From Candidatus Odinarchaeia archaeon (lineage in GTDB: Archaea; Asgardarchaeota; Odinarchaeia; Odinarchaeales; Odinarchaeaceae): a DNA stretch of 17,049 nt. Both the position numbers and the translations under genes were made by a program. Within the stretch, counting starts at the first letter, position 1. Each line of letters begins with the position of its first letter. Below the pieces are notes generated by a model. That model made no database searches. It was not told the DNA's origin and was given only the letters and a program-made list of their open reading frames with translations. The stretch is taken from positions 1 to 17,049 of the forward strand of contig JAHQXC010000024.1 of the NCBI GenBank assembly GCA_029856525.1, given 5' to 3'. This document shows, one piece after another, positions 2,276-15,011 of the stretch.

Positions 2276-2542
2276 TTAAGACTGCTTCTTCTGCTTCAAG
2301 TACGCGTACAAATACGGGCGGGTGTGCAGGTCCTTGTATTCTTCATTATAGTTTTGAATATAACAGCGTTTAACAACTTCGTCTATTGTCAAATCGCTGA
2401 GAGTTTTAATAATACCCATCTCATCGTCTCCTAGTTTTTTCACATGAACGTCTTCACCGCATAAAGGGCATGGTAATATTAAAGTCTCCTTACCGATGAC
2501 AAGGTTTTTAATCCAATGTTTTAATTCAGGATGTTTAACCAT
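2276..2542 (-). CDS. Small hypothetical protein with a single CxxC (CPLCG) knuckle
   Basis: 88-aa ORF with a strong SD (GGAGGA 5 nt before the ATG) and an upstream TATA-like TTAAATATATAAG (about 2594-2582, minus). No family recognised. Confidence 0.7.
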   Translation of the reverse strand: MVKHPELKHWIKNLVIGKETLILPCPLCGEDVHVKKLGDDEMGIIKTLSDLTIDEVVKRCYIQNYNEEYKDLHTRPYLYAYLKQKKQS

Positions 2543-2878: not shown

Positions 2879-3226
2879 ATGAAAGGAATGATCACCATGC
2901 TAGATGAAGTATGGGTTCCCGTAGCTTTTATAATAATTCTTATAGCTACAGCTGCGATTTACACATGGGGTAGAAAGATAGCACCGCCGTCGAGAAATAA
3001 AGGAGAAGCGGTTGAAAGCTATGCTTGCGGTGAAGAGCAACCTGATATACATACACATTTCAGAATAAACTGGTTTTACTATGCCGTATACTTTATGATA
3101 TTCGATATTATAGCTTTCATATTAACATTCGGAGCCTTCCAGATAGGTGTTCTACCCGCAGTTTACGCTGTAGTACTCTACGCGGCTGTATCAATAGTAG
3201 CCGTAGTAGTTTTATTAAGGGGGTAA
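2879..3226 (+). CDS. NuoA/ND3-like (MbhI N-terminal-like) membrane subunit of a group 4 [NiFe]-hydrogenase; probable start 2897
   Basis: Three hydrophobic segments with the loop motif ESYACGE (cf. NuoA PYECG) and YFMIFDI (cf. FLxFDVE). First gene of the cluster. The ATG at 2897 is preceded by GGAATGATC. Confidence 0.8.
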   Translation: MKGMITMLDEVWVPVAFIIILIATAAIYTWGRKIAPPSRNKGEAVESYACGEEQPDIHTHFRINWFYYAVYFMIFDIIAFILTFGAFQIGVLPAVYAVVLYAAVSIVAVVVLLRG

Positions 3227-3230
3227 AAAA

Positions 3231-3680
3231 ATGAGTAGATTAGTAGACTGGGCTAGAAGAAGCTCACCCTGGTTGCTACACTTCAACTCAGGCAGCTGCA
3301 ACGGCTGCGATATAGAAATTTTAGCTGCTTTAATGCCGAGATTCGATTTAGAAAGATTCGGGGCTTTACTGAAGGGGAGCCCACGCCACGCAGATGTATT
3401 AGTCTGCACTGGACCTGTTACAAGACAACAGGCACCGCGTCTTAGAAGAATATATGAGCAGATGCCTGAGCCTAAATTCGTAATGGTGGTAGGGACATGC
3501 GGTTCAACAGGCGGAGTTTTCAGAGGATGCTATAATGCAGCTGAAGGTATTGACACAGTTATACCAGTAGACGTCTATGTACCCGGATGCCCCGCTCGAC
3601 CTGAAGCTATAGCTTTAGGAGCGGTTAAACTTTTAGAAAAACTGAAAAACGCTCAGAAACAGGCTAGAGGTGAAAAATAA
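3231..3680 (+). CDS. Group 4 [NiFe]-hydrogenase small subunit (NuoB/HycG/EchC/MbhJ family)
   Basis: SCNGCDIE (CxxC, hydrogenase-type rather than the NuoB tandem CC), SPRHADVL, GTCGSTGG and YVPGCPARPEA supply four Fe-S cysteines. TAATG overlap with the next gene. Confidence 0.92.
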   Translation: MSRLVDWARRSSPWLLHFNSGSCNGCDIEILAALMPRFDLERFGALLKGSPRHADVLVCTGPVTRQQAPRLRRIYEQMPEPKFVMVVGTCGSTGGVFRGCYNAAEGIDTVIPVDVYVPGCPARPEAIALGAVKLLEKLKNAQKQARGEK

Positions 3681-5413
3681 TGGCGGAGTTAACTCAAATA
3701 CCTAAAACTGAAGAGTTGAAAAACGAATATGAAATCGTTGAAGAGATGAAAAACCTGCTTGGAAGCGATTTACTCGAATACAAGGTTCCGCGTGTAAACC
3801 GGGTTTGGATAACAGTCCCGAACGGTAAACACTACAAAGCAGCTGAGCATTTATATAAGAAGATGGGCGTCTGGTTTATAAGCACTGTAACCGGCTTAGA
3901 CTTAAAAGATCATTTTGAAGTATTATTCCATCTATTAGACATGCAGAGAAAAGTTGAGATCACCATTAGAGTCCCTGTATCTAAAGATAAACCTGAATTA
4001 GAATCTTTAACAGACTTCTATCCGGGCGCTAACCTCTATGAGAGAGAAGTCTACGATATGTTTGGAATAGTTTTTAAAGGACACCCTAATCTTAAAAGAC
4101 TTCTATTAGCTGAAACCTTCCCTGAAGGAGAACACCCGTTAAGAAAAGACTGGACTCCGGATAAATGGGATCCTAAAAAAGTTCCGCTTATACAAAGAAA
4201 ACCAATTCTACCAGAGGAGACCAGCGACTACGTTCTCCAAGTTGGGCCTCAAACTCCAACTCTAAAAGAACCTATGAACTTCGAAGTCATAGTAGACGGG
4301 GAAATAGTCGTCGACGTGATACCGCACATAGAATACAATCATAGAGGTTTAGAGAAAGCGTTCGAGCAGAGAACGTTTATACAAGGCATCTACATGGCGG
4401 AGAGAGTCTGCGGTATTTGCAGTCAAGCTCATACACTACCATACTGCGACGCTGTAGAGCAGCTGCTTGGAGTCCAAGTGCCGCCGAGAGGAAAATACAT
4501 TCGAACAATGGTCACAGAGTTTAACAGAATCCACAGCCACCTGCTATGGATAGGAGTAGCCTGCCATCTAATAGGCTGGGATACCATGTTCATGTACAGT
4601 TGGAGGGATCGAGAGGTTATCTTAGATTTAACTGATCTAGTATGCGGAAGCCGTGTAACAGCGGCTATAAACACAATCGGAGGGGTTCGAAGAGACATAA
4701 CAGATGAGCAGATATATAAAATAAGGAAGGGCATGGATATACTTGAAAAAAGAACGAAGACATATAAGAAAATCGTGTTAGAGGAGGATACTCTACTGAA
4801 ACGCGCTGTAGGCGTAGGCTATTTGAATCCCTCATACCTTAAAGCTATGAGCGCTGTAGGCCCAGTTATTAGAGGATCAGGTGTTAAAACAGATGTAAGA
4901 TATGATGACCCGCATTTCGGCGCATACGATGAAATCCCGTTCAACGTCTGCACATCCGATATGTGTGATGTAGCTGGCAGATTAGTAGTCCGCGTCGACG
5001 AGCTTATAGAATCCATTAACATAATAAGATATATCCTAGATCATCTCCCAAGCGGTGAGGTGAGAGTTAAAGTACCCAGAAAGGTACCTCCCGGAGAAGC
5101 GGTAAGTCATAACGAAGCGCCTAGAGGAGAAGTCTTCTATTATATTAAATCAAATGGCACAGATAAACCTGAAAGAGTTAAGGTTATCACACCTACCATG
5201 GCTAATCTTCTACCAATCATAGAATCTTGTAAAGGCCATTATATAGCGGACTTCGTTCTAAACTTCGGTAGCATCGATCCTTGCATAGCATGCATGTGCA
5301 GAACAACCTTCATAGATATCTCTAAGAGTAAGCCGAAGAAATGGGTTTGGACAGATGAAGAGATGAGGCGCTATGGAATAGAATGGTATCAGAATAGAGG
5401 TTGGAGGAGATAA
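3680..5413 (+). CDS. Group 4 [NiFe]-hydrogenase large subunit, fused NuoC+NuoD-like (HycE/HyfG-type architecture)
   Basis: N-terminal 30-kDa-type domain (YEREVYDMFGIVFKGHPNLKRLLL...HPLRKDW). L1 RVCGICSQAH (C244/C247) and L2 DPCIAC (C535/C538), followed by Arg541 and a 36-aa tail. SD GAGGTGA upstream. Confidence 0.92.
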   Translation: MAELTQIPKTEELKNEYEIVEEMKNLLGSDLLEYKVPRVNRVWITVPNGKHYKAAEHLYKKMGVWFISTVTGLDLKDHFEVLFHLLDMQRKVEITIRVPVSKDKPELESLTDFYPGANLYEREVYDMFGIVFKGHPNLKRLLLAETFPEGEHPLRKDWTPDKWDPKKVPLIQRKPILPEETSDYVLQVGPQTPTLKEPMNFEVIVDGEIVVDVIPHIEYNHRGLEKAFEQRTFIQGIYMAERVCGICSQAHTLPYCDAVEQLLGVQVPPRGKYIRTMVTEFNRIHSHLLWIGVACHLIGWDTMFMYSWRDREVILDLTDLVCGSRVTAAINTIGGVRRDITDEQIYKIRKGMDILEKRTKTYKKIVLEEDTLLKRAVGVGYLNPSYLKAMSAVGPVIRGSGVKTDVRYDDPHFGAYDEIPFNVCTSDMCDVAGRLVVRVDELIESINIIRYILDHLPSGEVRVKVPRKVPPGEAVSHNEAPRGEVFYYIKSNGTDKPERVKVITPTMANLLPIIESCKGHYIADFVLNFGSIDPCIACMCRTTFIDISKSKPKKWVWTDEEMRRYGIEWYQNRGWRR

Positions 5414-5415
5414 AA

Positions 5416-6465
5416 ATGGTCTTAGACATCTTCCTTGGAATCCTTCAAATAGTTTTATTCCCCGGCATAGTATTCTGCATAGGATTAACATTTCTCCTTG
5501 AATGGATTGATAGAAAATACTACGCGGATTTACAGAACAGAATGGGGCCCCTCTACGTTGGTTGGAGAGGTATACTTCAACCCTTCGCCGACTTCATTAA
5601 GCTTATGGCTAAAGAGGATATCACCCCGAAGGCCGCTGATAGAAGACTTTTCACAGCGACACCTTTCTTCTCGGTAGCGGTGCCTTTACTAGCCTTACTA
5701 TTCATTCCAATAACTAATGTGACAGGCGTTTTAAGCTTTCAAGGAGATCTCATATTCGTATTATTCTTAACAACAGTGATCGCCATATTAATTATACTAG
5801 CAGGGTATTCTTCAATGAACCGTTACAGTTCAATAGGAGCCGCCAGAGCAGGGTTACAATTAATGGGTTATGAAATACCTTTAACTTTAGCCGCGCTGAC
5901 ACCTGCCATGATAGCTAGAAGCCTAACTATAACAGAGATAGTTAAGTATCAAGCTGTAGCAGGTATGAGTATTCTAATATTCCCGAGCATGATCGCATTC
6001 GGAGTATTCATAATAACGCTTCTACCTGAATTGGAGAAAATACCCATGGATATACCTGAAGCAGAGACTGAGCTTGTAGCAGGCTGGCAGACAGAGTTCA
6101 GCGGTAAAAAATACGCGTTTCTCAGATTATCAAATAATCTAGAGCTTCTTTTAGGAGCAGGACTAGCGGTCACATTATTCTTAGGCGGACCCTATGGAAT
6201 AGAGAAGCTCCCAGGTTTGACAGCCCTAGATCTAGCGATTCAAGCTAATATAGTGTTATCCACAGTGTGGTACACTGCCTGGTTCCTTATTAAGACGGCG
6301 ATAGTTGTTTTAATAATAACGAATCTAAGAGCTTTATTCTCCAGGTATAGAATAGACCAGATGGTGAGAGGGGCATGGAAATATTTAACACCGCTCATGA
6401 TAGGGATTACAGCGATCACCATGCTTTTAAGCGCGGCTGTACCTGGCTTATATCCTATCGTTTAG
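5416..6465 (+). CDS. NuoH/ND1-like (HycD/EchB/MbhM) membrane subunit
   Basis: QNRMGP, GILQPFADFIKLMAKE, PMDIPEAETELVAGWQTEFSG and RYRIDQ match the ND1 family. Start moved from the track's TTG 5401 to ATG 5416 because 5403-5409 is the SD (GGAGGAG) and this removes the overlap with the previous gene. Confidence 0.92.
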   Translation: MVLDIFLGILQIVLFPGIVFCIGLTFLLEWIDRKYYADLQNRMGPLYVGWRGILQPFADFIKLMAKEDITPKAADRRLFTATPFFSVAVPLLALLFIPITNVTGVLSFQGDLIFVLFLTTVIAILIILAGYSSMNRYSSIGAARAGLQLMGYEIPLTLAALTPAMIARSLTITEIVKYQAVAGMSILIFPSMIAFGVFIITLLPELEKIPMDIPEAETELVAGWQTEFSGKKYAFLRLSNNLELLLGAGLAVTLFLGGPYGIEKLPGLTALDLAIQANIVLSTVWYTAWFLIKTAIVVLIITNLRALFSRYRIDQMVRGAWKYLTPLMIGITAITMLLSAAVPGLYPIV

Positions 6466-6477
6466 AGGTGAAATATA

Positions 6478-6858
6478 ATGGTTAGAAAACTAGGAGCAAT
6501 GGAACCGGAACTGTTAAAAAATCTCACTAAGAAAAGAGCTACAGTACTCTACCCTTTTGAAAAAATAGAGCTACCTGAAGCTTACAGAGGCTTATGGAGT
6601 TTCGATATAAACAAGTGTACAGGGTGCGGTTTATGCGCTAAAGACTGTCCGAGCGGAGCTATAGAGCTTAAGCCGACTGAGAGAACAAAAGCGGGCAGAT
6701 ATCCTATAAATTATGTGAGCAGATGCATGTTCTGCTCTCAATGCCAGGAAGTATGCCCAACCGGCGCGATTAAAATGACACCTGTATACGAGCTGTCAGA
6801 TTACAGGAAGAAGATAATAGACGCTGAAGCCCCCGAAGGCTACAGATACGAAGAGTAA
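6478..6858 (+). CDS. NuoI/HycF/EchF-like 2x[4Fe-4S] subunit
   Basis: CTGCGLCAKDCP and CMFCSQCQEVCP; TVLYPFEK N-terminal motif; SD GAGGTGA at 6465-6471. Confidence 0.92.
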   Translation: MVRKLGAMEPELLKNLTKKRATVLYPFEKIELPEAYRGLWSFDINKCTGCGLCAKDCPSGAIELKPTERTKAGRYPINYVSRCMFCSQCQEVCPTGAIKMTPVYELSDYRKKIIDAEAPEGYRYEE

Positions 6859-6890
6859 TATTCTTTTCCACCATCCCATATTTTTTAATA
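6859..6890 (+). terminator. Putative oligo-T terminator of the hydrogenase operon
   Basis: TTCTTTT and TTTTTT tracts directly after the NuoI-like stop codon. Confidence 0.35.
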
Positions 6891-6918
6891 TAATATACTT
6901 TCATGGAAACCTAAATTT

Positions 6919-6927
6919 TTTATATAA
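6919..6927 (+). promoter_or_regulatory. Putative TATA box for cimA
   Basis: TTTATATAA about 55-60 nt upstream of the TTG start; SD GAGGGA at 6966-6971. Confidence 0.4.
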
Positions 6928-6979
6928 GAGAATTATCTTCAATTCTAAGCAGAGGTTAAAGATATGAGGGATTATTTTA

Positions 6980-8482
6980 TTGGATAAAAGAATACTCGTT
7001 TTCGACACTACTTTAAGAGACGGAGAGCAAACACCAGGTGTAACACTTTCACCTGAAAAAAAGGTGGCTTTAGCTAAAAGCCTTGACGAATTCGGAGTCG
7101 ATATAATAGAAGCGGGCATGGCGGTCACCAGCAGAGGAGAGTATGAGGCTATAAGAGAAATAGCTAGACAGGGGTTAAACGCTAAAATATATGACGGATG
7201 CAGGTTAAACATTAAAGAAGTGGAGTTAGCTTTAGAACTCGACGTTAACGGTGTTCAAATCATTGTCCCAACCAGTGAACTCCACCAGCGGGTTAAACTC
7301 GGTAAAACACGGCAGCAGATAGAAGACATGCTCGTAGAGGTAATCTCATACGCTAAAGATCATGGTTTAGAGGTAGGGGTATCAGCGGAGGACGCTTCTA
7401 GAACAGAGAACAACTATTTAATAGAATTAGCTAGAAGAATAGAAGAATTGAAGGGTGATCGCTTCTGCTACTGCGACACCGTTGGAGTTTTAACACCTGA
7501 AAACGCTTATAAAAATATAAGCGAGCTGAGAAAAGAAGTAAACTTGAAAATAGGCATACACTGTCACGATGACTTCGGATTAGCGACAGCGAACACTATA
7601 GCAGCCCTCAAAGCAGGCGCCGACGAGTTTCACAGCACCATAAACGGGTTAGGTGAGAGAGCCGGGAACGCGGCTACAGAAGAGATAGTAATGGCGTTAA
7701 AACAATTATACGGAGTGGAACTAAACTTGAAATATAATAAGCTATTCACCTTATCACGGGAGATAGCGAATCTAACAGGCATCCAAGTGCAGCCGAATAA
7801 AGCAATCGTAGGAGCCAACGCGTTCACACATGAATCAGGCATTCACACAGATGGCATGATGAAGGATACGCGAATGTATGAGCCATTCGACCCTGAGATA
7901 ATAGGGCGGAAAAGAAAATATGTTATAGGAAAACACTCCGGTAAAAGCATAGTAAAAAACATGCTTAAAGAGCTTGGAATAGATTTAACCGAAGACCAAT
8001 TGTTAATACTAGTAGATAAAATTAAAACATTAGCTGAAAAAGATAAACTTGTAACAGAAGCTGACGTAGTAGCCTTAGCTTACGATATTATAGGCTCGCC
8101 GAGAAAAGAATTCGTAAAACTAGATGAGTTAACAGTAGTGACAGGGAACAAGATAACACCCTTCGCAAGCGTTCACATATATGCTAATAACCAGAAGTAT
8201 ATGGCTTCTGGAACAGGCGTGGGTCCTGTTGACGCCGCTATAAACGCTATTAAAAACGCTACCAACATGTTCACGGATATAAAACTCGAAAACTATGAGG
8301 TTAAATCTATAACAGGGGGTACAAACGCATTAGTTGATGTGGCTGTAACACTTAAAAGGGGAGAAGTGGAGAGAAAAGGAAGAGGAGTCAGCGAGGACAT
8401 CATAGCGGCGAGTGTATTCGCATACCTGTCGGCGGTTAACCAAATACTTATATTACCTGAAGAAAATGAAAAACAAAAATAA
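6980..8482 (+). CDS. cimA: (R)-citramalate synthase CimA (archaeal LeuA/CimA family; 2-isopropylmalate synthase not fully excluded)
   Basis: DRE-TIM motifs DTTLRDGEQTPG, HCHDDFG and GLGERAGNA plus the C-terminal regulatory domain. IVPTS, CDTVGVLTP and KLDELTVVTGNKITP match methanogen CimA better than LeuA (IATS, PDTVG). TTG start with SD. Confidence 0.75.
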   Translation: MDKRILVFDTTLRDGEQTPGVTLSPEKKVALAKSLDEFGVDIIEAGMAVTSRGEYEAIREIARQGLNAKIYDGCRLNIKEVELALELDVNGVQIIVPTSELHQRVKLGKTRQQIEDMLVEVISYAKDHGLEVGVSAEDASRTENNYLIELARRIEELKGDRFCYCDTVGVLTPENAYKNISELRKEVNLKIGIHCHDDFGLATANTIAALKAGADEFHSTINGLGERAGNAATEEIVMALKQLYGVELNLKYNKLFTLSREIANLTGIQVQPNKAIVGANAFTHESGIHTDGMMKDTRMYEPFDPEIIGRKRKYVIGKHSGKSIVKNMLKELGIDLTEDQLLILVDKIKTLAEKDKLVTEADVVALAYDIIGSPRKEFVKLDELTVVTGNKITPFASVHIYANNQKYMASGTGVGPVDAAINAIKNATNMFTDIKLENYEVKSITGGTNALVDVAVTLKRGEVERKGRGVSEDIIAASVFAYLSAVNQILILPEENEKQK

Positions 8483-8543
8483 TATAATATTCAACTTTAA
8501 AGATTCGCGGAAGGCTTGAAAACTATTCTATAAGGTGATTTTA

Positions 8544-9362
8544 ATGAATATAGGTTTACTAGGCTGCGGCGCGATTGGTGAACTAATAGTAGAAGCACAA
8601 GTAGAAGGAATACTAGAAGACATCGATATTATAATAGTTTACGATCAAGATCGTGGAAGAGCTGAGAAATGCGCTAGCAAAATGCCTAAACCACCAAAAA
8701 TAGCTGAGAACATTAATGAACTTATCGAAAACAAGGACATCCAGCTTATAGTTGAAGCAGCCTCCCAGAAAGCTGTCAGAGATTACGCTTTAAAAATCCT
8801 TGAAAATGATAAAAACCTTATGATTATGAGCGTTGGAGCTCTTGTAGATAAAGAATTTTATAATCTACTCGTTCAAACCGCTAAAAAAAGAAACCGGAAA
8901 ATATATATTCCATCCGGTGCCATAGCTGGTGTGGACGCTATTAAAGCAGCCTCGTTAGGTAAAATCCATGAAGTGGAATTAATAACCCGTAAACCGCCGA
9001 GCAGATTTATAAGCGATAAGCTCCCAGGCGGGATTAAAATAAACCAGGATATGAAGGAGCCTACAGTAATATTTAAAGGAGATGCGAAAACAGCCCAAGA
9101 CTTTTTCCCGCGGAGTATAAATGTAGCTGCAACGTTAAGCCTAGCGAGTATAGGCCCGGAGCTTACGAAAGTTACAATAATCGCTGATCCAACTATAGAA
9201 GAGAATATCCATGAGATAAATGTTAAAGGAGAGTTCGGCACACTAAGAACATATGTGAAAAATCTTCCATCAATTAAAAACCCTAAAACCAGTTATCTAG
9301 CAGCTTTATCAGCGATAAAAACTCTTAAAAAAATATCCGAGCATATTGAAATAGGAACGTGA
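8544..9362 (+). CDS. nadX: L-aspartate dehydrogenase NadX
   Basis: Rossmann GCGAIG, EAASQ, SGAIAGVD, FPRSINVAATLSLA, NIHEI and NPKTSYLAALS; directly upstream of nadA-nadC. Start moved to ATG 8544 because the track's GTG 8535 lies in the SD AAGGTGAT. Confidence 0.9.
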   Translation: MNIGLLGCGAIGELIVEAQVEGILEDIDIIIVYDQDRGRAEKCASKMPKPPKIAENINELIENKDIQLIVEAASQKAVRDYALKILENDKNLMIMSVGALVDKEFYNLLVQTAKKRNRKIYIPSGAIAGVDAIKAASLGKIHEVELITRKPPSRFISDKLPGGIKINQDMKEPTVIFKGDAKTAQDFFPRSINVAATLSLASIGPELTKVTIIADPTIEENIHEINVKGEFGTLRTYVKNLPSIKNPKTSYLAALSAIKTLKKISEHIEIGT

Positions 9363-9479
9363 ACTATCAATCTTACAGCCTAAGCTAGGATAATCAACTT
9401 CGGTTCAAGAGTATTATGAAAAAAATTATAGTGAATAAACTGTTAAATCTATTAGGTTAAATTGCGGAGAGGATGAATC

Positions 9480-10400
9480 TTGCTTTCAACACTGCAAAAG
9501 GAGATTTTGAATCTTAAAAAAAGTGAAAACGCGGTTCTATTAGTTCATAATTATCAGACGATGGATATACAAGAAATAGCCGACTACATAGGCGACTCAT
9601 ATGAGCTATCCGTGAAAGCATCTCAGATCAAAGACGTCGATTACATAGTATTCTGCGGAGTAGACTTCATGGCGGAAACAGCTTCAATCCTAAACCCTGA
9701 TAAAAAAGTTTTAATCCCGGATAGAAACGCTAAATGCCCTATGGCTGCGATGCTGCCTGCGAGTTTAATCAGAGAAGCCAGATTAAAACACCCGAACGCT
9801 GAAGTCATGGTTTACGTTAACACATGGGCTGAAACTAAAGCTGAAGCAGATGTAACATGCACGTCTTCAAACGCGGTGAAAATAGCTGAAAAACTTGAAT
9901 CTGAAACAATACTATTCGGACCTGATAAAAACCTTGCTTTATATGTTCAAAGCCGACTCCCGAATAAAAAAATAATACCTATACCAGAGTACGGGCATTG
10001 CTACGTTCACAGCCAGTTCACCTATGAACCTATAAAAATGAAAATAGAGCACCCGGATGCTATTCTCATGGCTCACCCTGAGTGCTCGCCTGAAGTTTTA
10101 AAAAGAGCTGATTTCATTGGAAGTACAAGTCAAATGTATAATTACGCTAAGACATCACCTCATAAAAAATTCATAGTTACAACGGAGATAGGGTTGATAC
10201 AGAGAATGCAAAGAGAGATACCGGATAAAACATTTATAATGGCTAAACCGGACGCTGTATGCACGCAGATGAAGATGCATACACTTGAAAAAATTAAAGA
10301 AGTACTAGTTAACAAAGATAAAATTGTTAAAGTGAAGAGTGAAATAGCTGAAAAAGCTCGGAAAGCTATACTTAGAATGGTGGAGCTTACAAATGGTTGA
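9480..10400 (+). CDS. nadA: Quinolinate synthase NadA
   Basis: VHNYQ, FCGVDFMAETA, CPMA, YVNT, CTSSN, GHCYVH, AHPEC, GSTS, TEIG and CTQMK, including the three cluster cysteines. TTG start after GGAGAGGATGA. Confidence 0.95.
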   Translation: MLSTLQKEILNLKKSENAVLLVHNYQTMDIQEIADYIGDSYELSVKASQIKDVDYIVFCGVDFMAETASILNPDKKVLIPDRNAKCPMAAMLPASLIREARLKHPNAEVMVYVNTWAETKAEADVTCTSSNAVKIAEKLESETILFGPDKNLALYVQSRLPNKKIIPIPEYGHCYVHSQFTYEPIKMKIEHPDAILMAHPECSPEVLKRADFIGSTSQMYNYAKTSPHKKFIVTTEIGLIQRMQREIPDKTFIMAKPDAVCTQMKMHTLEKIKEVLVNKDKIVKVKSEIAEKARKAILRMVELTNG

Positions 10401-11253
10401 AAACATTCAATGGGTTAAACAAAAAGTATTAGCCGCTCTTCTAGAAGATGTAGGATACGGTGATATAACAACTGAGATAATAATACCGGGGGATAAAAAC
10501 GGTGAAGCAGCTATAATAGCTGAGGAGAAAGGTGTTTTAGCCGGTTTACAGGAAGTTAAACTACTCTTCAACGAGTTTAATATAAATATAACAGCTGAGT
10601 TAAAAGACGGGGACAGCATAACTGAACCGGGTTTAAAAATAGCAGAGATTAAAGGCCCTTTAAAAGGGATTCTCACATGTGAGCGAACCGCGCTGAATTT
10701 TTTAATGAGAATGAGCGGTGTTGCAACTCTAACTAATCGAATCGTATTAAAAGCTAAGAAAGTGAACCCGAATATTCGAGTAGCTGCAACCCGTAAAACA
10801 CTGCCTTTACTAGGCTACTTTGATAAAAGAGCAGTCCAGTTAGGGGGAGGGGACACACACCGGTTAAGATTAGACGACTGTATATTAATAAAGGATAATC
10901 ATATAAAAGCTGTAGGGGGGATAGAGGAGATTCTTAGAAAGGTTAGAGGACAAGTGAGTTTCACTAAGAAAATCGAGATAGAAGTGGAAAACGAGGAGGA
11001 CGCGGTTAAAGCGGCTAAAAACGGAGCTGACATAATAATGCTAGATAATATGAAACCGGGCAATATAATATCAACTATTAGAAGACTTGAAGAAAACAAG
11101 CTGAGAGACAGAGTCATATTAGAAGCCTCAGGAGGTATAAATGAAGAGAATATAGTCGAATACGCGAAAACCGGAGTAGATGTAGTATCATTAGGTTATA
11201 TAACTCATTCAGCTAAAGCTTTAAACTTTAAAATAGAACTTGAGAGAATTTAA
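10393..11253 (+). CDS. nadC: Nicotinate-nucleotide pyrophosphorylase (quinolinate phosphoribosyltransferase) NadC
   Basis: EDVGYGDIT, ERTALNFL..MSGVAT, ATRKT, GGGDTHRLRLDDCILIKDNH, IEIEVE, DIIMLDNM, EASGGI and GVDVVSLG. 8-nt overlap with nadA. Confidence 0.95.
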   Translation: MVENIQWVKQKVLAALLEDVGYGDITTEIIIPGDKNGEAAIIAEEKGVLAGLQEVKLLFNEFNINITAELKDGDSITEPGLKIAEIKGPLKGILTCERTALNFLMRMSGVATLTNRIVLKAKKVNPNIRVAATRKTLPLLGYFDKRAVQLGGGDTHRLRLDDCILIKDNHIKAVGGIEEILRKVRGQVSFTKKIEIEVENEEDAVKAAKNGADIIMLDNMKPGNIISTIRRLEENKLRDRVILEASGGINEENIVEYAKTGVDVVSLGYITHSAKALNFKIELERI

Positions 11254-11302
11254 AATATCTAAAAAGTTTTAGTTAGCAGATTATTTATAAAAAACATAAC
11301 TG

Positions 11303-11310
11303 TTATAAAT
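11303..11310 (+). promoter_or_regulatory. Putative TATA box of the por operon
   Basis: TTATAAAT about 45-50 nt upstream of the ATG at 11356; strong SD GGAGGAG just before the start. Confidence 0.45.
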
Positions 11311-11355
11311 CACTTGTAATAACGTTTAATCGGCGGAGTCTTAGGAGGAGTCTTA

Positions 11356-11919
11356 ATGAATAAGATTATTGAGATAAGATTTCACGGTCGAGGCGGTCAG
11401 GGCGCTTGGACTGCAACCCAGCTTCTAGCTATGTCAGCTTTAGAAGAGGGAAAATACGCTCAATCATTCCCTTCATTTGGACCTGAAAGAGCCGGCGCTC
11501 CTATGATGGCTTTCGTCAGAATCTCAAATCAGCCTATTAAACTGCACTCGGATATTTACAACCCTCACAGCGTAGTCGTATTAGATCCTACACTTCTATC
11601 CGCGGTTAACGTTTTAGATGGAATGCAATCTAACGGTAAACTAGTAGTTAACTCTCATGAGTCCCCTTCCACCCTTAAAAATAAGCTTAATTTAAAAGAT
11701 CAGCAGGAGTTATGGGTTGTTCCAGCCTCAGATATAGCTATAGAAATACTAGGCAGAGACATAACCAGCACGGCGATGATCGGTGCACTAGTGAAGGCTA
11801 CAGGGTATGTTAGCTTAGACAGTGTACTCAAACAAGTCCAGAAACGTTTCTCAGGAGCGATAGCGGAGAAAAATATTATTTTAATAAAAAGATCATACGA
11901 GGAGGCTAAAAAAGCATGA
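11356..11919 (+). CDS. porG: Pyruvate/2-oxoacid:ferredoxin oxidoreductase gamma subunit
   Basis: EIRFHGRGGQGAWTA, AQSFPSFGPERAGAP, VVVLDPTL and NS motifs; first of four contiguous POR genes. Confidence 0.92.
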   Translation: MNKIIEIRFHGRGGQGAWTATQLLAMSALEEGKYAQSFPSFGPERAGAPMMAFVRISNQPIKLHSDIYNPHSVVVLDPTLLSAVNVLDGMQSNGKLVVNSHESPSTLKNKLNLKDQQELWVVPASDIAIEILGRDITSTAMIGALVKATGYVSLDSVLKQVQKRFSGAIAEKNIILIKRSYEEAKKA

Positions 11920-12197
11920 GCGAGGAGAAATCTTGGCGGGAAATCCCACTAGGCGGTTTAACCTGGCTTCACAGCTCAGAGTATAAAACAGGTGAGTGGA
12001 GATCGTTTAGACCTGTAGTCGACCATAATAAATGTACACGGTGCATGCAATGCGTTATATACTGTCCGGATATCGCGATTAAATATAAACCTGACGTTAA
12101 CATGATTGAAATAAACTTTGATTATTGTAAGGGATGCGGTGTATGCGCGGAAGAATGCCCTGTCCACGCTATAACAATGGTTAAGGAGAAAGAATAG
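11916..12197 (+). CDS. porD: Pyruvate/2-oxoacid:ferredoxin oxidoreductase delta subunit
   Basis: KTGEWRSFRPVVD, CTRCMQCVIYCP and YCKGCGVCAEECP. ATGA overlap with gamma. Confidence 0.92.
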   Translation: MSEEKSWREIPLGGLTWLHSSEYKTGEWRSFRPVVDHNKCTRCMQCVIYCPDIAIKYKPDVNMIEINFDYCKGCGVCAEECPVHAITMVKEKE

Positions 12198-12202
12198 GGG
12201 GG

Positions 12203-13513
12203 ATGGTGATGTCTAAGATTGTGAAACAAGAAATGATGGGTATGAACGGTGATACAGCTTGCGCTTACGCTGTTAAACAGTGTAATCCTGAAGTGGTTGC
12301 CGCATATCCGATCACACCTCAAACAATTATCGTCGAAGTATTCTCAGAGTATGTCGCCAACGGCGAGGTTACCACCGAGTTTATACCTGTTGAATCAGAG
12401 CACAGCGCGATGTCAACCTCTATAGGAGCGGCTGCAGCTGGAGCTAGAGCGTACACGGCTAGCGCATCTCAGGGATTAGCTTTAATGTATGAAATGTTGT
12501 ATATAGCTTCAGGTTTAAGGCTGCCAATAGTGATGACATGTGTGAATAGAGCGTTAAGCGCGCCTATAAACATTCACGGTGATCACTCGGATGCTATGGG
12601 TGCAAGAGACAGCGGTTGGATACAATTATATTGCGAGAACAGTCAGGAAGCTTATGATACGGTGATTCAGGCCTGGCGTATAGCAGAGCATAAAGATGTT
12701 CTTCTACCTGTTATGGTTAACATAGACGGGTTTATACTAAGCCATACGCTTGAAAATGTAGCTGTGCTTCCAGACGATGCTGTTAAAAAATTTATAGGGG
12801 AGAAAAAGATCCCGGTTGTTAAAAAACCGAGCGGTGAACTAACACCATATGTTTTACACCCTGACTATCCTGTTTCAATGGGGGCTATAGACTTACAGGA
12901 TTATTATTTCGAACATAAAAGACAGCAAGCTGAAGCTATGAAGAACGCTCTAAAAGTCATTAAAGAAGTCGGTGAAGAGTACGGTGAGCTTACAGGTAGA
13001 AGATACGGTTTAATAGACGCTTACATGATGGATGACGCGGAAATAGCGATAATAGTTATGGGTTCAACAGCGGGCACAGCTAAGTATGCCGCTGACTTAA
13101 TGAGGGAGAAAGGGGTTAAAGCGGGTGTTCTAAGAGTCAGATCTTTCAGACCGTTCCCGAGAGATGACATCGTGAAAACGCTTTCAAAAGTTAAAGCCTG
13201 CGCTGTTCTCGATAGAAGTATAAGCTTCGGCTCCTACGGGGGACCGTTATTCACTGAGATAAGATCTTCATTCTGCTATGAATGCGAGAAGCCTATTATA
13301 ATAAACTACTATTATGGGCTTGGAGGAAGAGACACACCCCCGAATCTTTTAGAGAATGTTTTCAGCGAGCTTAAAAGAATTGTTGAAACAGGTAAAATCG
13401 GCGAGGAGATAAGATATCTAGGGCTTAGAGAGGATAGTATTGACTCTGTTAATTATAAAGCGGAGCTTATCAGCTTTAAAGATTTAAACACTGGAAATAT
13501 TGGAGGGAAATAA
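12203..13513 (+). CDS. porA: Pyruvate/2-oxoacid:ferredoxin oxidoreductase alpha subunit (start may be 12209)
   Basis: AAYPITPQT, VESEHSAMS, TASASQGLALMYE, VNRALSAPINIHGDHSD, VRSFRPFP and GLGGRD. POR versus VOR specificity is not resolvable by eye. Confidence 0.92.
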   Translation: MVMSKIVKQEMMGMNGDTACAYAVKQCNPEVVAAYPITPQTIIVEVFSEYVANGEVTTEFIPVESEHSAMSTSIGAAAAGARAYTASASQGLALMYEMLYIASGLRLPIVMTCVNRALSAPINIHGDHSDAMGARDSGWIQLYCENSQEAYDTVIQAWRIAEHKDVLLPVMVNIDGFILSHTLENVAVLPDDAVKKFIGEKKIPVVKKPSGELTPYVLHPDYPVSMGAIDLQDYYFEHKRQQAEAMKNALKVIKEVGEEYGELTGRRYGLIDAYMMDDAEIAIIVMGSTAGTAKYAADLMREKGVKAGVLRVRSFRPFPRDDIVKTLSKVKACAVLDRSISFGSYGGPLFTEIRSSFCYECEKPIIINYYYGLGGRDTPPNLLENVFSELKRIVETGKIGEEIRYLGLREDSIDSVNYKAELISFKDLNTGNIGGK

Positions 13514-13514
13514 G

Positions 13515-14483
13515 ATGTCTGTTGTTAAACCTAAAGATTTAGCGCTCACAGAGGAGCGGTTGGCTCCAGGTCACAGATTATGCCCTGGCTGCGGTGAACC
13601 GACCACTGTTAAATTAGTTTTAAAAGCGAGTGATGACCCTGTTATAGTTTGCAGTGCGACTGGTTGCTTAGAGGTTTCAACCTCAATATACCCGTATACT
13701 TCATGGAATGTACCCTGGATACATAGCGCTTTCGAAAATGCAGCGGCTACAGCTGCAGGCGTAGAAGCCGCTATAAAAGCTTTGAAAAGAAACGGTGTAT
13801 ACAAGTATGATAAAGTAAATGTTCTAGCGGTTGCAGGGGATGGGGGAACCTATGATATCGGTTTTCAAGCGCTTTCAGGAGCTTTTGAAAGATATCATAG
13901 AATAGTATACTTGCTGCTAGATAATGAAGCTTATATGAATACCGGTATCCAAAGAAGCGGCGGCACGCCTAGCTATGCTTCAACGACTACAAGCCCTGAT
14001 GGCAAGGTGATACCCGGTAAATTGCAGACTAAAAAACAGATCAGCCGTATAATGGTTGAACATGAACCCGCTTATGTAGCAACTATTTCAGCTGCTTTCT
14101 GGCAGGATTTAATACAGAAATCTAAGAAGGCTTTCGCGGCGGATGGACCCGCCTTCCTTCATTCAATCACTCCATGCCCGCGTGGATGGAGGCATGCGGA
14201 TAATCTTACAATAGAATTGTGTAGACTCGCAGTTCAAACATGCATATTCCCGTTATGGGAGGCTGAAAAAATCGATGGCAAAATGGTTTACAAGTTATCC
14301 GCACCCAGCAAGCAGATAGCTAAAAACCCTGATAAAAAGAAACCTGTAGTCGAGTATCTTAAGCTTCAAGGAAGATACAGACATTTATTTAAACCAGAGG
14401 AGAAAACGGAGCTCATCAATCAGATACAAGAGTGGGTTGACACTGAATGGGATATTATATTAGAGCGGTGCGGTGAAAAATAA
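13515..14483 (+). CDS. porB: Pyruvate/2-oxoacid:ferredoxin oxidoreductase beta subunit
   Basis: GHRLCPGCG, TGCLEV, FENAAATAAG, the TPP motif GDGGTYDIGFQALSG...DNEAYMNTGIQRS, and PCPRGW. Start moved to ATG 13515 (SD GGAGGG at 13502-13507). Confidence 0.92.
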   Translation: MSVVKPKDLALTEERLAPGHRLCPGCGEPTTVKLVLKASDDPVIVCSATGCLEVSTSIYPYTSWNVPWIHSAFENAAATAAGVEAAIKALKRNGVYKYDKVNVLAVAGDGGTYDIGFQALSGAFERYHRIVYLLLDNEAYMNTGIQRSGGTPSYASTTTSPDGKVIPGKLQTKKQISRIMVEHEPAYVATISAAFWQDLIQKSKKAFAADGPAFLHSITPCPRGWRHADNLTIELCRLAVQTCIFPLWEAEKIDGKMVYKLSAPSKQIAKNPDKKKPVVEYLKLQGRYRHLFKPEEKTELINQIQEWVDTEWDIILERCGEK

Positions 14484-14486
14484 TCG

Positions 14487-15011
14487 TTAACAGTGTTGAG
14501 AGATTAGAGAAGCAGCGATTTCTATAAAAACCCTTTCTATATTAAACCCGGTCTTAGAGGAGACCGGGATAAATTCTTTTAACCCGTATTTTTTAACTAA
14601 TTCGATTATCTGATCTGAATAGGGGTTATCGTTTATTAAATCAGATTTAGAACCGACTAAGATTATCGGTATCTCACGAGTATTCTGTTTGACGAGCTCA
14701 ATCCATTCAGGTAAAGCTAGAAAAGTCGAGAACCTGCTTTGATCGAATACTATGATAGCCCCCTGAGCGCCTTTACAGAAAGATGGTAGAAGAGTTCTAA
14801 AACGATCCTCTCCTCCTAAATCCCAGATCTGCATTTTAACAGTTACACCGTTTAAGTTTACAGTCGCTATTGCGAAGGAGACGCCTATAGTGGTTTTACT
14901 GTTAGTGAACTGGCCTGTTACATATCTTTTTATAAGCGTAGTCTTTCCGACACCACCCTCGCCGACAACTATGATCTTGTAGAGTCGTTGATAGCTGCTC
15001 ATCTTCGTCAC
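14487..15011 (-). CDS. Rab-like small GTPase (Ras superfamily); alternative start ATG 15002
   Basis: G1 GEGGVGKT, G2 TTIGV, G3 WDLGG, G4 SKSD, G5 SSK. RabF-like segments IGVSF, KMQIW, RFRTLL, FCKGA and IVFDQS. Confidence 0.92.
   Translation of the reverse strand: MTKMSSYQRLYKIIVVGEGGVGKTTLIKRYVTGQFTNSKTTIGVSFAIATVNLNGVTVKMQIWDLGGEDRFRTLLPSFCKGAQGAIIVFDQSRFSTFLALPEWIELVKQNTREIPIILVGSKSDLINDNPYSDQIIELVKKYGLKEFIPVSSKTGFNIERVFIEIAASLISQHC

Follow-up and report, generated by a model that had tools for sequence, protein, structure and literature searches.

A probable complex-I-like group 4 [NiFe]-hydrogenase in an Odinarchaeon, with its hydrogenase arm and candidate membrane arm encoded in separate units

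Do the five tightly packed plus-strand genes at positions 2879-6858 of the window (the whole stretch of DNA analyzed, 17,049 nucleotides from an Odinarchaeon) constitute a complete enzyme or one part of a larger complex? Their order, NuoA, NuoB, a NuoC-D fusion, NuoH and NuoI, had been predicted and was confirmed by the open reading frames and Pfam matches, and a Pfam search of the window detected no PF00361 antiporter-like gene. The original prediction offered two readings, (i) a hydrogenase that does not pump ions and (ii) a hydrogenase that docks, possibly interchangeably, on a membrane arm encoded elsewhere. The second, stripped of its interchangeable docking, is the reading favored here: with a probability of about 0.75, the five-gene unit represents the hydrogenase arm and the NuoH/NuoA anchor of a predicted 11-12-subunit complex-I-like group 4 [NiFe]-hydrogenase.

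The unit is preceded by an AT-rich divergent spacer of 336 bp (2543-2878, sequence read directly), as had been predicted, beyond which an 88-amino-acid gene lies on the minus strand. A TATA-like box at ~2841-2851, which precedes the start of the nuoA-like gene by ~30 nt, was assigned by eye and is likely the archaeal promoter of the five-gene unit; the sigma-70 promoter scan is not applicable to archaea. The first gene (2879-3226, plus strand) encodes a NuoA/ND3-like membrane subunit of 115 amino acids with ~3 transmembrane (TM) helices, whose match to PF00507 (Oxidored_q4) at 30.9 bits is weak yet exceeds the cut-off. Translation may in fact begin at Met4 or Met7. The loop motif YACGE (amino acids 48-52, nt 3020-3034) was invariant in an alignment of 16 orthologue sequences. 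The second gene (3231-3680, plus strand) encodes a NuoB-like hydrogenase small subunit of 149 amino acids (PF01058, Oxidored_q6, 109.6 bits; TIGR01957, 158 bits, above cut-off). Its cysteines C23, C26, C90, and C120, located in CNGC (amino acids 23-26), GTCG (read as GTCGSTGG) and PGCP, would bind one [4Fe-4S] cluster, the single proximal one; the pattern is the hydrogenase-type CxxC, and the tandem CC of complex I was not seen.

The third gene (3680-5413, plus strand) encodes a single protein of 577 amino acids in which a NuoC-like domain is fused to the [NiFe] large subunit (Complex1_30kDa, NiFeSe_Hases, and Complex1_49kDa matches). All four Ni/Fe cysteines are present, in the L1 motif RVCGICSQAH (amino acids 242-251, nt 4403-4432) and the L2 motif DPCIACMCR (amino acids 533-541, nt 5276-5302), which conform to RxCGxCxxxH and DPCxxCxxR; the translations from which the motifs were read thus bore out the claim that RVCGIC, DPCIAC, and the small-subunit CNGC are intact. 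L2 is followed by a C-terminal extension of 36 amino acids (nt 5303-5410) that a HycI-type protease probably cleaves off. The fourth gene (5401-6465, plus strand) encodes a NuoH/ND1-like membrane anchor (PF00146, NADHdh, 282.6 bits) of 354 amino acids if read from TTG 5401, the ATG at 5416 being the likelier start, and retains the acidic loop between TM5 and TM6, PMDIPEAETELVAGWQTE (nt 6043-6096). The fifth gene (6478-6858, plus strand) encodes a NuoI-like 2x[4Fe-4S] ferredoxin-type subunit of 126 amino acids, likely the docking site for ferredoxin, with two CxxCxxCxxxCP motifs (nt 6616-6651 and 6724-6759) matching Fer4 families; its matches to NuoI/HycF-type NCBIfam models were under their cut-offs.

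Two features assigned downstream fared less well. Where a terminator had been proposed after the nuoI-like gene, the spacer at 6859-6979 contains an oligo-T run only (~6880-6887), and a hairpin scan of this spacer found no stem-loop terminator; from general knowledge of archaea, the transcription unit likely ends at the oligo-T run. The gene that follows, called cimA at first, belongs to the isopropylmalate/citramalate-synthase (leuA/cimA) family, and among NCBIfam models 2-isopropylmalate synthase fits it best; the name cimA is thus not established. Pyruvate:ferredoxin oxidoreductase genes are located 4.5 kb downstream of the unit.

Several features expected of a group 4 [NiFe]-hydrogenase were found, namely both CxxC motifs, the four-Cys NuoB-like subunit, the C-terminal extension, and maturation genes. 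The latter, hypC, hypD, and hypF on one contig of the genome and a HycI-type protease gene on another, were recovered by the genome search that had been proposed with the original prediction, as was the orphan antiporter cluster described below. All 15 orthologues from the loci compared retain the Ni/Fe cysteine motifs and a C-terminal extension; 121 of 121 close database homologues keep L2 and the extension, and 117 of these the strict L1. This conservation, together with the maturation genes, argues for a working hydrogenase.

The view of the unit as a mosaic of hydrogenase and complex I was upheld by the score comparisons, in which the NuoB-like and C-D subunits scored higher against E. coli HycG and HycE, and H, I, and the L and M subunits of the membrane arm higher against their Nuo counterparts (for the NuoH-like protein, 152 bits against NuoH and 89 bits against HycD). 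As in the complex I core (NuoABCDHIJKLMN of E. coli and T. thermophilus), the same 11 subunit types are encoded and the gene order within each half is the same, L satisfies the NuoL family model and M the NuoM one, and both the acidic loop of NuoH and the ND3-type loop of NuoA have been retained. Unlike in complex I, the four Ni/Fe cysteines are all present in the D domain, which has a presumably cleavable tail at its C terminus, and the small subunit has CxxC (CNGC) rather than tandem CC. Respiratory complex I (NADH:quinone oxidoreductase) was rejected on account of the Ni/Fe cysteines in D, the CNGC in B and the result for NuoF (PF01512), for which no match was found in the genome (93% complete).

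Among solved structures, E. coli HycE (7Z0S_E, 316 bits, full-length) is the best match to the large subunit, followed by MbhL and Nqo4. E. coli hydrogenase 3 (HycE/HycG, PDB 7Z0S, group 4a) likewise has a NuoC-like domain fused at the N terminus and a peptide at the C terminus, which HycI cleaves in Hyc, but it lacks NuoA, J, K, M, and N, possesses one antiporter-like subunit (HycC), and is wired to formate dehydrogenase via HycB. Assignment to Hyc/Hyf (group 4a/4f) was rejected: the window contains no HycB-type ferredoxin, formate dehydrogenase or HycC/HyfB-type antiporter, and the likeness consists of the C-D fusion and the score only. The description of the fusion as Hyc/Hyf-like holds for its form and score, but not for its origin: beyond the Odin order, C and D are encoded by separate genes in the nearest orthologues, so the fusion arose independently of Hyc. 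P. furiosus Mbh (PDB 6CFW, group 4d) is a ferredoxin-dependent, H2-evolving, ion-translocating relative, properties that are here predicted, and likewise has NuoJ split in two (MbhD/MbhE); it differs by its one antiporter-like subunit with an Mrp-type Na+ module, by having no NuoA-like gene where NuoA would stand, and by its single 14-gene operon. Ech-type enzymes (group 4e; six genes echABCDEF, one antiporter-like EchA, no NuoA/J/K) were rejected as well, NuoA being present, antiporters absent from the unit, and C and D fused. Group 4g of HydDB, where a Bathyarchaeota enzyme (BA1) is listed, would be a guess for the present enzyme, 4g being loosely clustered, polyphyletic, of unknown function, and not a natural group (PMC13582414).

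The statement that antiporter genes are missing is correct for the contig of the window and incorrect for the genome. A single orphan cluster of nuoJ (split), K, L, M, and N was found on another contig (C96) of the metagenome-assembled genome (MAG), with no B, D, H, or I gene beside it. L (685 amino acids) passes TIGR01974 (NuoL), which it matches at positions 7-629 of 630, and ends in a TM helix, a long amphipathic stretch, and a further TM helix; M passes TIGR01972 (NuoM). Of the E. coli NuoL residues compared, E144, D178, K229, H334, H338, K342, and K399 have identical counterparts in L, and D400 corresponds to Glu. Alignment to the E. coli positions was poor for the N subunit and for some residues of M and K. 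For the split NuoJ, J1 matches PF13244 and J2 has a faint match to MbhE. The NuoL and NuoM matches, the conserved residues of L, the acidic loop of NuoH, and the YxCGx loop of NuoA argue for a working membrane arm.

When compared with a closed Odinarchaeum genome, C96, the contig of an HdrB-linked second hydrogenase (C63), and the contig of the window (C17) are collinear and consecutive. In the closed genome the starts of A and J are 16,955 bp apart, the two units are divergent, and the HdrB-linked hydrogenase sits between them; MAG J65_bin.29 has the same layout. The L-M-N set thus lies ~17 kb from the hydrogenase unit in the same region, while the NuoH-like gene is inside the unit. The gene content of the two units is complementary: the window encodes A, B, CD, H, and I, with the one NuoA-like gene of the genome, and C96 encodes J1, J2, K, L, M, and N, with its one NuoK, so that all eleven core types are covered. 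From this complementarity, the missing NuoF, the collinear contigs, and the linkage of orthologous units in relatives, we infer that the two units probably form one enzyme.

In relatives, the orthologous units occur as a single operon A-B-C-D-H-I-J-K-L-M-N (two genomes), as J to N followed by A to I (two genomes), or back to back (six genomes). Across other Asgard and TACK archaea the two units are either joined in one operon or placed back to back at distances of 0.25-3.5 kb, and one operon or back-to-back units were also found on Thermoprotei, Asgardarchaeia, and Bathyarchaeota contigs, the Thermoprotei contig carrying hypF/C/E/D and hycI alongside. No NADH module (NuoE/F/G) was found beside the unit in any relative inspected. 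The D domain of the window groups on short branches with Asgard and TACK orthologues, the tree showing only that grouping, and the two paralogous large subunits of the genome, E. coli HycE, and NuoCD are on long branches. Outside Asgard, the closest homologues are "nickel-dependent hydrogenase large subunit" proteins of Bathyarchaeia/Thermoproteota (54-58% identity).

Counting against a joint enzyme, the two units are separate transcription units, each with its own AT-rich upstream region, and at least three Asgard lineages show them unlinked: 17 kb lie between them in Odinarchaeum and ~70 kb in another lineage, and in a sister family they fall on different contigs. The A-B-CD-H-I unit might instead be a self-sufficient, membrane-anchored ferredoxin:H+ oxidoreductase, non-pumping or with one channel, and J-K-L-M-N an independent cation/proton antiporter, and the MrpD-like model is indeed the top score for N. 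In the T. thermophilus complex I structure, NuoA is bundled with NuoJ and NuoK. Here the only NuoA is encoded with the hydrogenase half and the only J and K with the antiporter half, which speaks against this division. The units are moreover contiguous or adjacent in most relatives, and the J-N cluster contains no MrpE/F/G genes and has L and M subunits that pass the NuoL and NuoM models. We therefore regard a self-sufficient hydrogenase beside an independent antiporter as quite improbable, even with the precedents of Thermoprofundales, in which the MBH arms are encoded apart and reported to function independently (PMC9585477), and of Drh of Methanocellales, an antiporter-free group 4 enzyme (10.1101/2022.04.06.487207).

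The genome encodes three group 4 hydrogenase modules (the window, the HdrB-linked C63 module, and a Hyf-like module on C54) and one J-N cluster, which in Odin genomes is nearer to the adjoining HdrB-linked module (~5 kb) than to the unit of the window. A J-K-L-M-N arm shared by, and docking interchangeably on, any of the three is nevertheless very unlikely, and this part of the original prediction is not supported: the C63 and C54 modules have their own antiporter-like subunit(s) and no NuoA, and where no second module is nearby the J-N genes stand beside orthologues of the window unit. In the tree, the large subunit of the window is orthologous to those adjacent to J-N genes, and its C63 and C54 counterparts stand as distant paralogues. 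Assembly of the window unit with the J-N arm is suggested by the synteny in relatives.

The joint enzyme would have all 11 core subunits of complex I, again in 11 polypeptides because the fusion of C and D is offset by the split of NuoJ, with no NADH module and with a nickel-iron active site in place of the quinone site. Its catalytic half (NuoI-like, NuoB-like, and NuoC-D) would be joined through the NuoH-like and NuoA-like subunits to a membrane arm of split NuoJ, NuoK, NuoL with its long C-terminal helix region, NuoM, and NuoN, encoded by the oppositely oriented distant unit. Ferredoxin reduced by, for instance, the pyruvate:ferredoxin oxidoreductase whose genes lie downstream would dock on the NuoI-like subunit, electrons would travel along three [4Fe-4S] clusters and reduce protons to H2 at the Ni-Fe site, and the reaction would drive H+ or Na+ movement via the NuoH/A/J/K region and the antiporter-like L, M, and N subunits. 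As judged from sequence, the enzyme probably oxidizes ferredoxin, evolves H2, and moves ions. The ferredoxin-to-H2 reaction releases too little energy to power four pumping channels with the stoichiometry of complex I, and therefore stoichiometry, ion or direction may differ. The same 11-12-subunit complex running mainly in reverse, with an ion gradient driving ferredoxin reduction by H2 as for Eha/Ehb and Ech in methanogens, would, given several pumping channels, be favored on general bioenergetic grounds over pumping powered by this small energy drop, and nothing in the sequence fixes the direction. We consider this unlikely: besides the nearby ferredoxin-producing oxidoreductase, Odinarchaeia are described as organoheterotrophs consuming or producing H2 (PMC11291895), and H2 evolution is proposed in published models of the family (PMC11291895; 10.1101/2024.07.04.601786).

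An enzyme of this kind is already published for Asgard archaea, as complex-I-like group 4 [NiFe]-hydrogenases of Freyarchaeia/Atabeyarchaeia (Valentin-Alvarado et al., 2024; PMC11291895) and as subgroups 4j-4q (Appler et al., 2024; bioRxiv 10.1101/2024.07.04.601786). Antiporter genes adjacent in close relatives and an enzyme inside a described subgroup of standard composition had been named as what would refute the original prediction, and this is largely what was found, the antiporter genes being contiguous with or beside A-B-C-D-H-I orthologues and the enzyme belonging to a published kind. The Odinarchaeon enzyme shares with the published kind the NuoB/C/D/I peripheral arm, the intact Ni-Fe site, the absence of NuoEFG, and NuoH with an L-like subunit bearing an HL-type C-terminal region plus at least two antiporter-like subunits, M and N being present. 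It differs in its fused C and D and in the 17 kb that separate the halves, within which another hydrogenase is nested. The preprint, which modelled neighbouring ORFs only, reported shortened membrane arms (10.1101/2024.07.04.601786), whereas in this genome a full L-M-N set is located at a distance.

The ORFs were named with Pfam and NCBIfam models and the metal-binding motifs were read from the translations. At 2879-6858 five ORFs lie on one strand, neither overlapping nor separated by more than 12 nt, and encode a NuoA-like protein (PF00507, a weak match at 30.9 bits), a NuoB-like protein (PF01058, with TIGR01957 above its cut-off), a single 577-aa protein joining a NuoC-like domain to a [NiFe] large subunit (PF00329, PF00374 and PF00346), a NuoH-like protein (PF00146, 282.6 bits) and a NuoI-like protein with two [4Fe-4S] motifs (CxxCxxCxxxCP twice). 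The large subunit carries the N- and C-terminal Ni/Fe-binding motifs L1 (RVCGICSQAH) and L2 (DPCIACMCR), the latter followed by a 36-residue tail, and the small subunit carries CNGC, GTCG and PGCP. The acidic loop of the NuoH-like protein reads PMDIPEAETELVAGWQTE, and the first loop of NuoA contains the sequence YACGE, invariant in the orthologue alignment, which we take to be the counterpart of the ND3 YECGF loop. Profile searches found no antiporter-like gene across the 17-kb window. The five-gene order, the intact metal motifs and this absence were thus as the original prediction had described them.

The upstream spacer of 336 bp is AT-rich, with a TATA-like box about 30 nt 5' of the first ATG. 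The terminator reported 3' of the unit proved to be an oligo-T run in which no hairpin was found, and the downstream gene called cimA scored best with the isopropylmalate-synthase family, so that its identity as cimA is not established. A bacterial promoter and terminator scan, which is not applicable to archaea, gave fewer sites than in shuffled sequences. The start of NuoA is uncertain (2879-2897), the orthologue alignments beginning at Met4; for the NuoH-like gene the ATG at 5416, 3 nt past the stop of the CD gene, is likelier than the TTG at 5401, which overlaps that gene by 13 nt.

The MAG (1.32 Mb in 127 contigs, 93% complete), of which the window is one entire contig (C17), was searched with PF00361 and contains six antiporter-like genes, three of them on contig C96 and three in two further, self-contained group 4 modules on contigs C54 and C63. 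One DNA sequencing run, probably that of the source sample, contains the stretch, and no RNA run was listed for it. The orphan NuoJ-N cluster for which a genome search had been proposed was found on C96, as a run of six minus-strand genes encoding the N-terminal part of NuoJ (J1, 86 aa; PF00499 and MbhD), a 106-aa membrane protein (J2) with only a faint MbhE match in Pfam, NuoK (PF00420), NuoL (685 aa, passing model TIGR01974 along its whole length), NuoM (517 aa, passing TIGR01972) and a NuoN/MrpD-like protein (520 aa). No B, D, H or I gene stands beside this cluster. NuoJ takes the form of two ORFs (C96 5806-6365) in Odinarchaeia and also in Asgard, Thermoprotei and Bathyarchaeota relatives; the arrangement is like MbhD/MbhE and unlike the single NuoJ of bacteria. 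The genome has one NuoK and one NuoA, and NuoF was not found in the 93% complete MAG. The maturation genes that had been proposed as a further search target were found as hypC, hypD, hypF and a HycI-type protease.

At the eight positions that we take to be essential in E. coli NuoL (E144, D178, K229, H334, H338, K342, K399 and D400) the Odinarchaeia L protein aligns with E, D, K, H, H, K, K and E, and its C-terminus looks like a transmembrane helix, an amphipathic stretch of about 70 residues and a last transmembrane helix, as expected of the long lateral helix. The first conserved Glu of NuoK is kept; at such divergence the alignments of M, N and the second NuoK position with E. coli are too poor for these positions to be judged. 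A complex prediction of the window NuoA with J1, J2 and K of C96, with an orthologue alignment for each (score 0.04, mark 0.32), weighs neither way.

The C54 module comprises C, L-like, an ORF with no name, antiporter, then B, D, H and I. The C63 module (2925-10410) comprises Fer4_11, a no-name ORF, a CCG/HdrB-like gene, another no-name ORF, an antiporter-like gene (528 aa), a CD fusion (595 aa), a NuoH-like gene, a 207-aa Fe-S protein (I) and a NuoB-like gene. The small nameless ORFs of both modules had no Pfam match.

Candidatus Odinarchaeota MAGs and a closed genome (1.418 Mb) from the same genus carry near-identical loci, at 93-98% protein identity. BLASTN against the closed Odinarchaeum genome placed C96, C63 and C17 as collinear and consecutive; the MAG assembly broke twice within one region of about 33 kb, and the C63 module separates the genes for the two halves of the complex-I-like enzyme. 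The nuoA-like and nuoJ-like genes of the closed genome are divergent, with starts 16,955 bp apart, and the interval holds an 88-aa gene, an ArsB-family transporter, an OYE-family oxidoreductase, the HdrB-linked hydrogenase module, a GcvH-like gene, a 441-aa no-name gene and a small GTPase. The layout is identical on a 1.05-Mb contig of the MAG J65_bin.29. A misassembly was ruled out, because the antiporter-free five-gene unit recurs both in the closed genome and on this contig.

For the comparison of gene order, all eleven query proteins were mapped on loci taken from other Asgard genomes at their best large-subunit matches. The genes form a single run A-B-C-D-H-I-J-K-L-M-N in two genomes (G094 and G085), J to N is directly followed by A to I in G004, and the same order with a gcvH-like gene between is found in G008. 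Back-to-back units with a spacer of 0.25-3.5 kb occur in G005, G009, G010, G120, G122 and G390. MAG contigs from outside this Asgard set agree, with a single run B-C-D-H-I-J-J2-K-L-M-N-A (Asgardarchaeia), the back-to-back form (Bathyarchaeota) and A-B-C-D-H-I-J-J2-K-antiporter with two more antiporter-like genes divergent and hypF, hypC, hypE, hypD and hycI alongside (Thermoprotei). In family f2, the sister of the Odinarchaeia genus, the units are unlinked on different contigs, and in G118 of family f15 a single contig carries both at a distance of about 70 kb (G118:C1: L-M-N cluster at 474097-479337, orthologous large-subunit gene at 548870-549922). Since the units are unlinked in f2 and G118 and linked in other relatives, the split is real and recurrent but a derived arrangement of one enzyme family. 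The L-like protein in G118 has 804-813 aa. In the Heimdall-side genome G390 (contig C84, locus L052, 1470-13071) C and D are detached from A-B-H-I, which is still back to back with J-K-N-L-M; here the gene set is rearranged in yet another way. In the sister family a C63-type module lies directly 5' of the A-B-CD-H-I unit (L025 and L026). A phylum-wide NuoL search, in which only two first-look candidates per genome were scored, missed the L genes that tblastn found beside D in G120 and G122, and absences from it were therefore not used for a co-occurrence statistic.

In the phylogenetic tree of the large subunit the window sequence falls into a clade of starred support with those of Odinarchaeia, f2, DRO11 and Asgardarchaeia, and this clade stands on short branches (0.1-0.6) among the remaining orthologues from Asgard and TACK archaea. 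Branches of 1.7-5.7 lead to HycE and NuoCD of E. coli and to the large subunits of C54 and C63. As the tree does not resolve its deep branching, no conclusion is drawn from it on any relation to true NuoD. Both Ni/Fe motifs and a tail of 31-41 residues were present in 15/15 locus orthologues. Among the best 121 database homologues L2 and a tail of 24-59 residues were found in all 121 and the strict L1 in 117; their source names include 'nickel-dependent hydrogenase large subunit', 'NADH dehydrogenase subunit D' and 'membrane-bound hydrogenase subunit alpha'. A degenerate NuoD-type protein that is no longer a hydrogenase was ruled out by the family-wide Cys motifs and the maturation genes.

The solved structures matched best were, in descending order, HycE (7Z0S, 316 bits), MbhL (6CFW, 242 bits) and Nqo4 (230 bits). 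Against the E. coli proteins B scored 121 with HycG and 115 with NuoB, and CD 319 with HycE and 241 with NuoCD, whereas the Nuo counterpart scored higher for H (HycD 89, NuoH 152), I (HycF 69, NuoI 77) and L (HycC 98, NuoL 293), which agrees with the mosaic of hydrogenase and complex I that had been proposed. The CD fusion had been called Hyc/Hyf-like; inheritance from Hyc/Hyf was ruled out, the nearest orthologues being unfused, and with separate C and D genes in most orthologues the fusion is a local event.

The five genes most likely encode the catalytic half of an enzyme of a published kind (Valentin-Alvarado et al., 2024, PMC11291895; Appler et al., 2024). What was observed here is the set of subunits with their cofactor motifs, the presence of maturation genes and the linkage of the units in relatives; that the window unit and the J-N unit of C96 form one complex is inferred and considered probable (roughly 0.75-0.8). 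In such a complex reduced ferredoxin would be the donor, electrons would travel via NuoI and NuoB to the Ni-Fe site and produce H2, and the reaction would drive ion movement via H/A/J/K and L/M/N. The four-gene pyruvate:ferredoxin oxidoreductase at 11356-14483 is a likely source of the reduced ferredoxin. On general bioenergetic grounds the drop from ferredoxin to H2 does not yield enough energy for four protons per electron pair, so that the enzyme may move fewer ions, exchange Na+ for H+ in part of the arm, or run in reverse. The 'minimal, antiporter-free' enzyme of the original prediction holds for the contig but not for the genome, with its J-N cluster on C96, and results from viewing a single contig of a fragmented MAG together with the real 17-kb separation of two transcription units; an autonomous hydrogenase of this type is improbable. 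The split between I and J into two transcription units, present in Odinarchaeia and in one or more further Asgard families, might also let the cell build the hydrogenase half with or without the L-M-N pumping arm and so alternate between venting H2 without coupling and conserving energy. We regard this as a long shot; if true, such switchable assembly would illustrate in a living organism the modular origin from hydrogenase and Mrp that has been proposed for complex I.

That a full complex I subunit set with a live nickel-iron site stands between energy-converting hydrogenases and respiratory complex I, and that such enzymes occur in the archaeal group closest to eukaryotes, has been published. 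The Asgard subgroups 4j-4q, as defined by Appler et al. (2024, bioRxiv 10.1101/2024.07.04.601786), are described as resembling complex I in architecture, with a NuoD that has an active Ni-Fe site and with NuoEFG lacking; they were modeled from adjacent ORFs only, with the authors' own warning that ORFs may be missing and models incomplete. The HydDB subgroup 4g is a loose, polyphyletic bin (PMC13582414) that includes a Bathyarchaeota enzyme. Antiporter-free group 4 enzymes (Drh; 10.1101/2022.04.06.487207) and arms encoded apart (Thermoprofundales MBH; PMC9585477) are also in print. The useful remainder is the recurrent split between I and J and its effect on neighborhood-based reconstructions: in Odinarchaeia, as in one or more other Asgard families, the genes for the catalytic and pumping halves are far apart and may land on different contigs of a fragmented MAG, and neighborhood surveys and adjacent-ORF multimer models will then show too little of the membrane arm or take the enzyme for a 'minimal' one. 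The break coincides with the border of the hydrogenase module and the antiporter module.

A GcvH-like (lipoyl-carrier) gene lies beside the divergent nuoA/nuoJ region in at least five Asgard lineages (C96 8514-8951; L048 11249-11647; L050 5428-5829; L051 5766-6167; L046 12962-13405), and its product could be a disulfide substrate or partner. In Culexarchaeia a GcvH gene within an HdrB-linked hydrogenase cluster has been described. The 88-aa gene (window 2276-2542, minus strand) has no family match beyond a faint zinc-ribbon match, is 91-97% identical in other Odinarchaeum genomes and there always lies between arsB and nuoA. The OYE-family ORF at 3-818 of the window is open at its 5' end and probably continues from the open ORF (11089-11445) in which C63 ends. 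The stretch at 8535-14483 contains nadX-nadA-nadC (NAD biosynthesis) and then the pyruvate/2-oxoacid:ferredoxin oxidoreductase genes (gamma, delta, alpha, beta). Two eukaryote-like small GTPases, of a kind typical of Asgard genomes, are encoded at 14487-15011 of the window (minus strand; Ras/Roc family) and at 6548-7141 of C96 (plus strand; Arf-like), the latter divergent from nuoJ.
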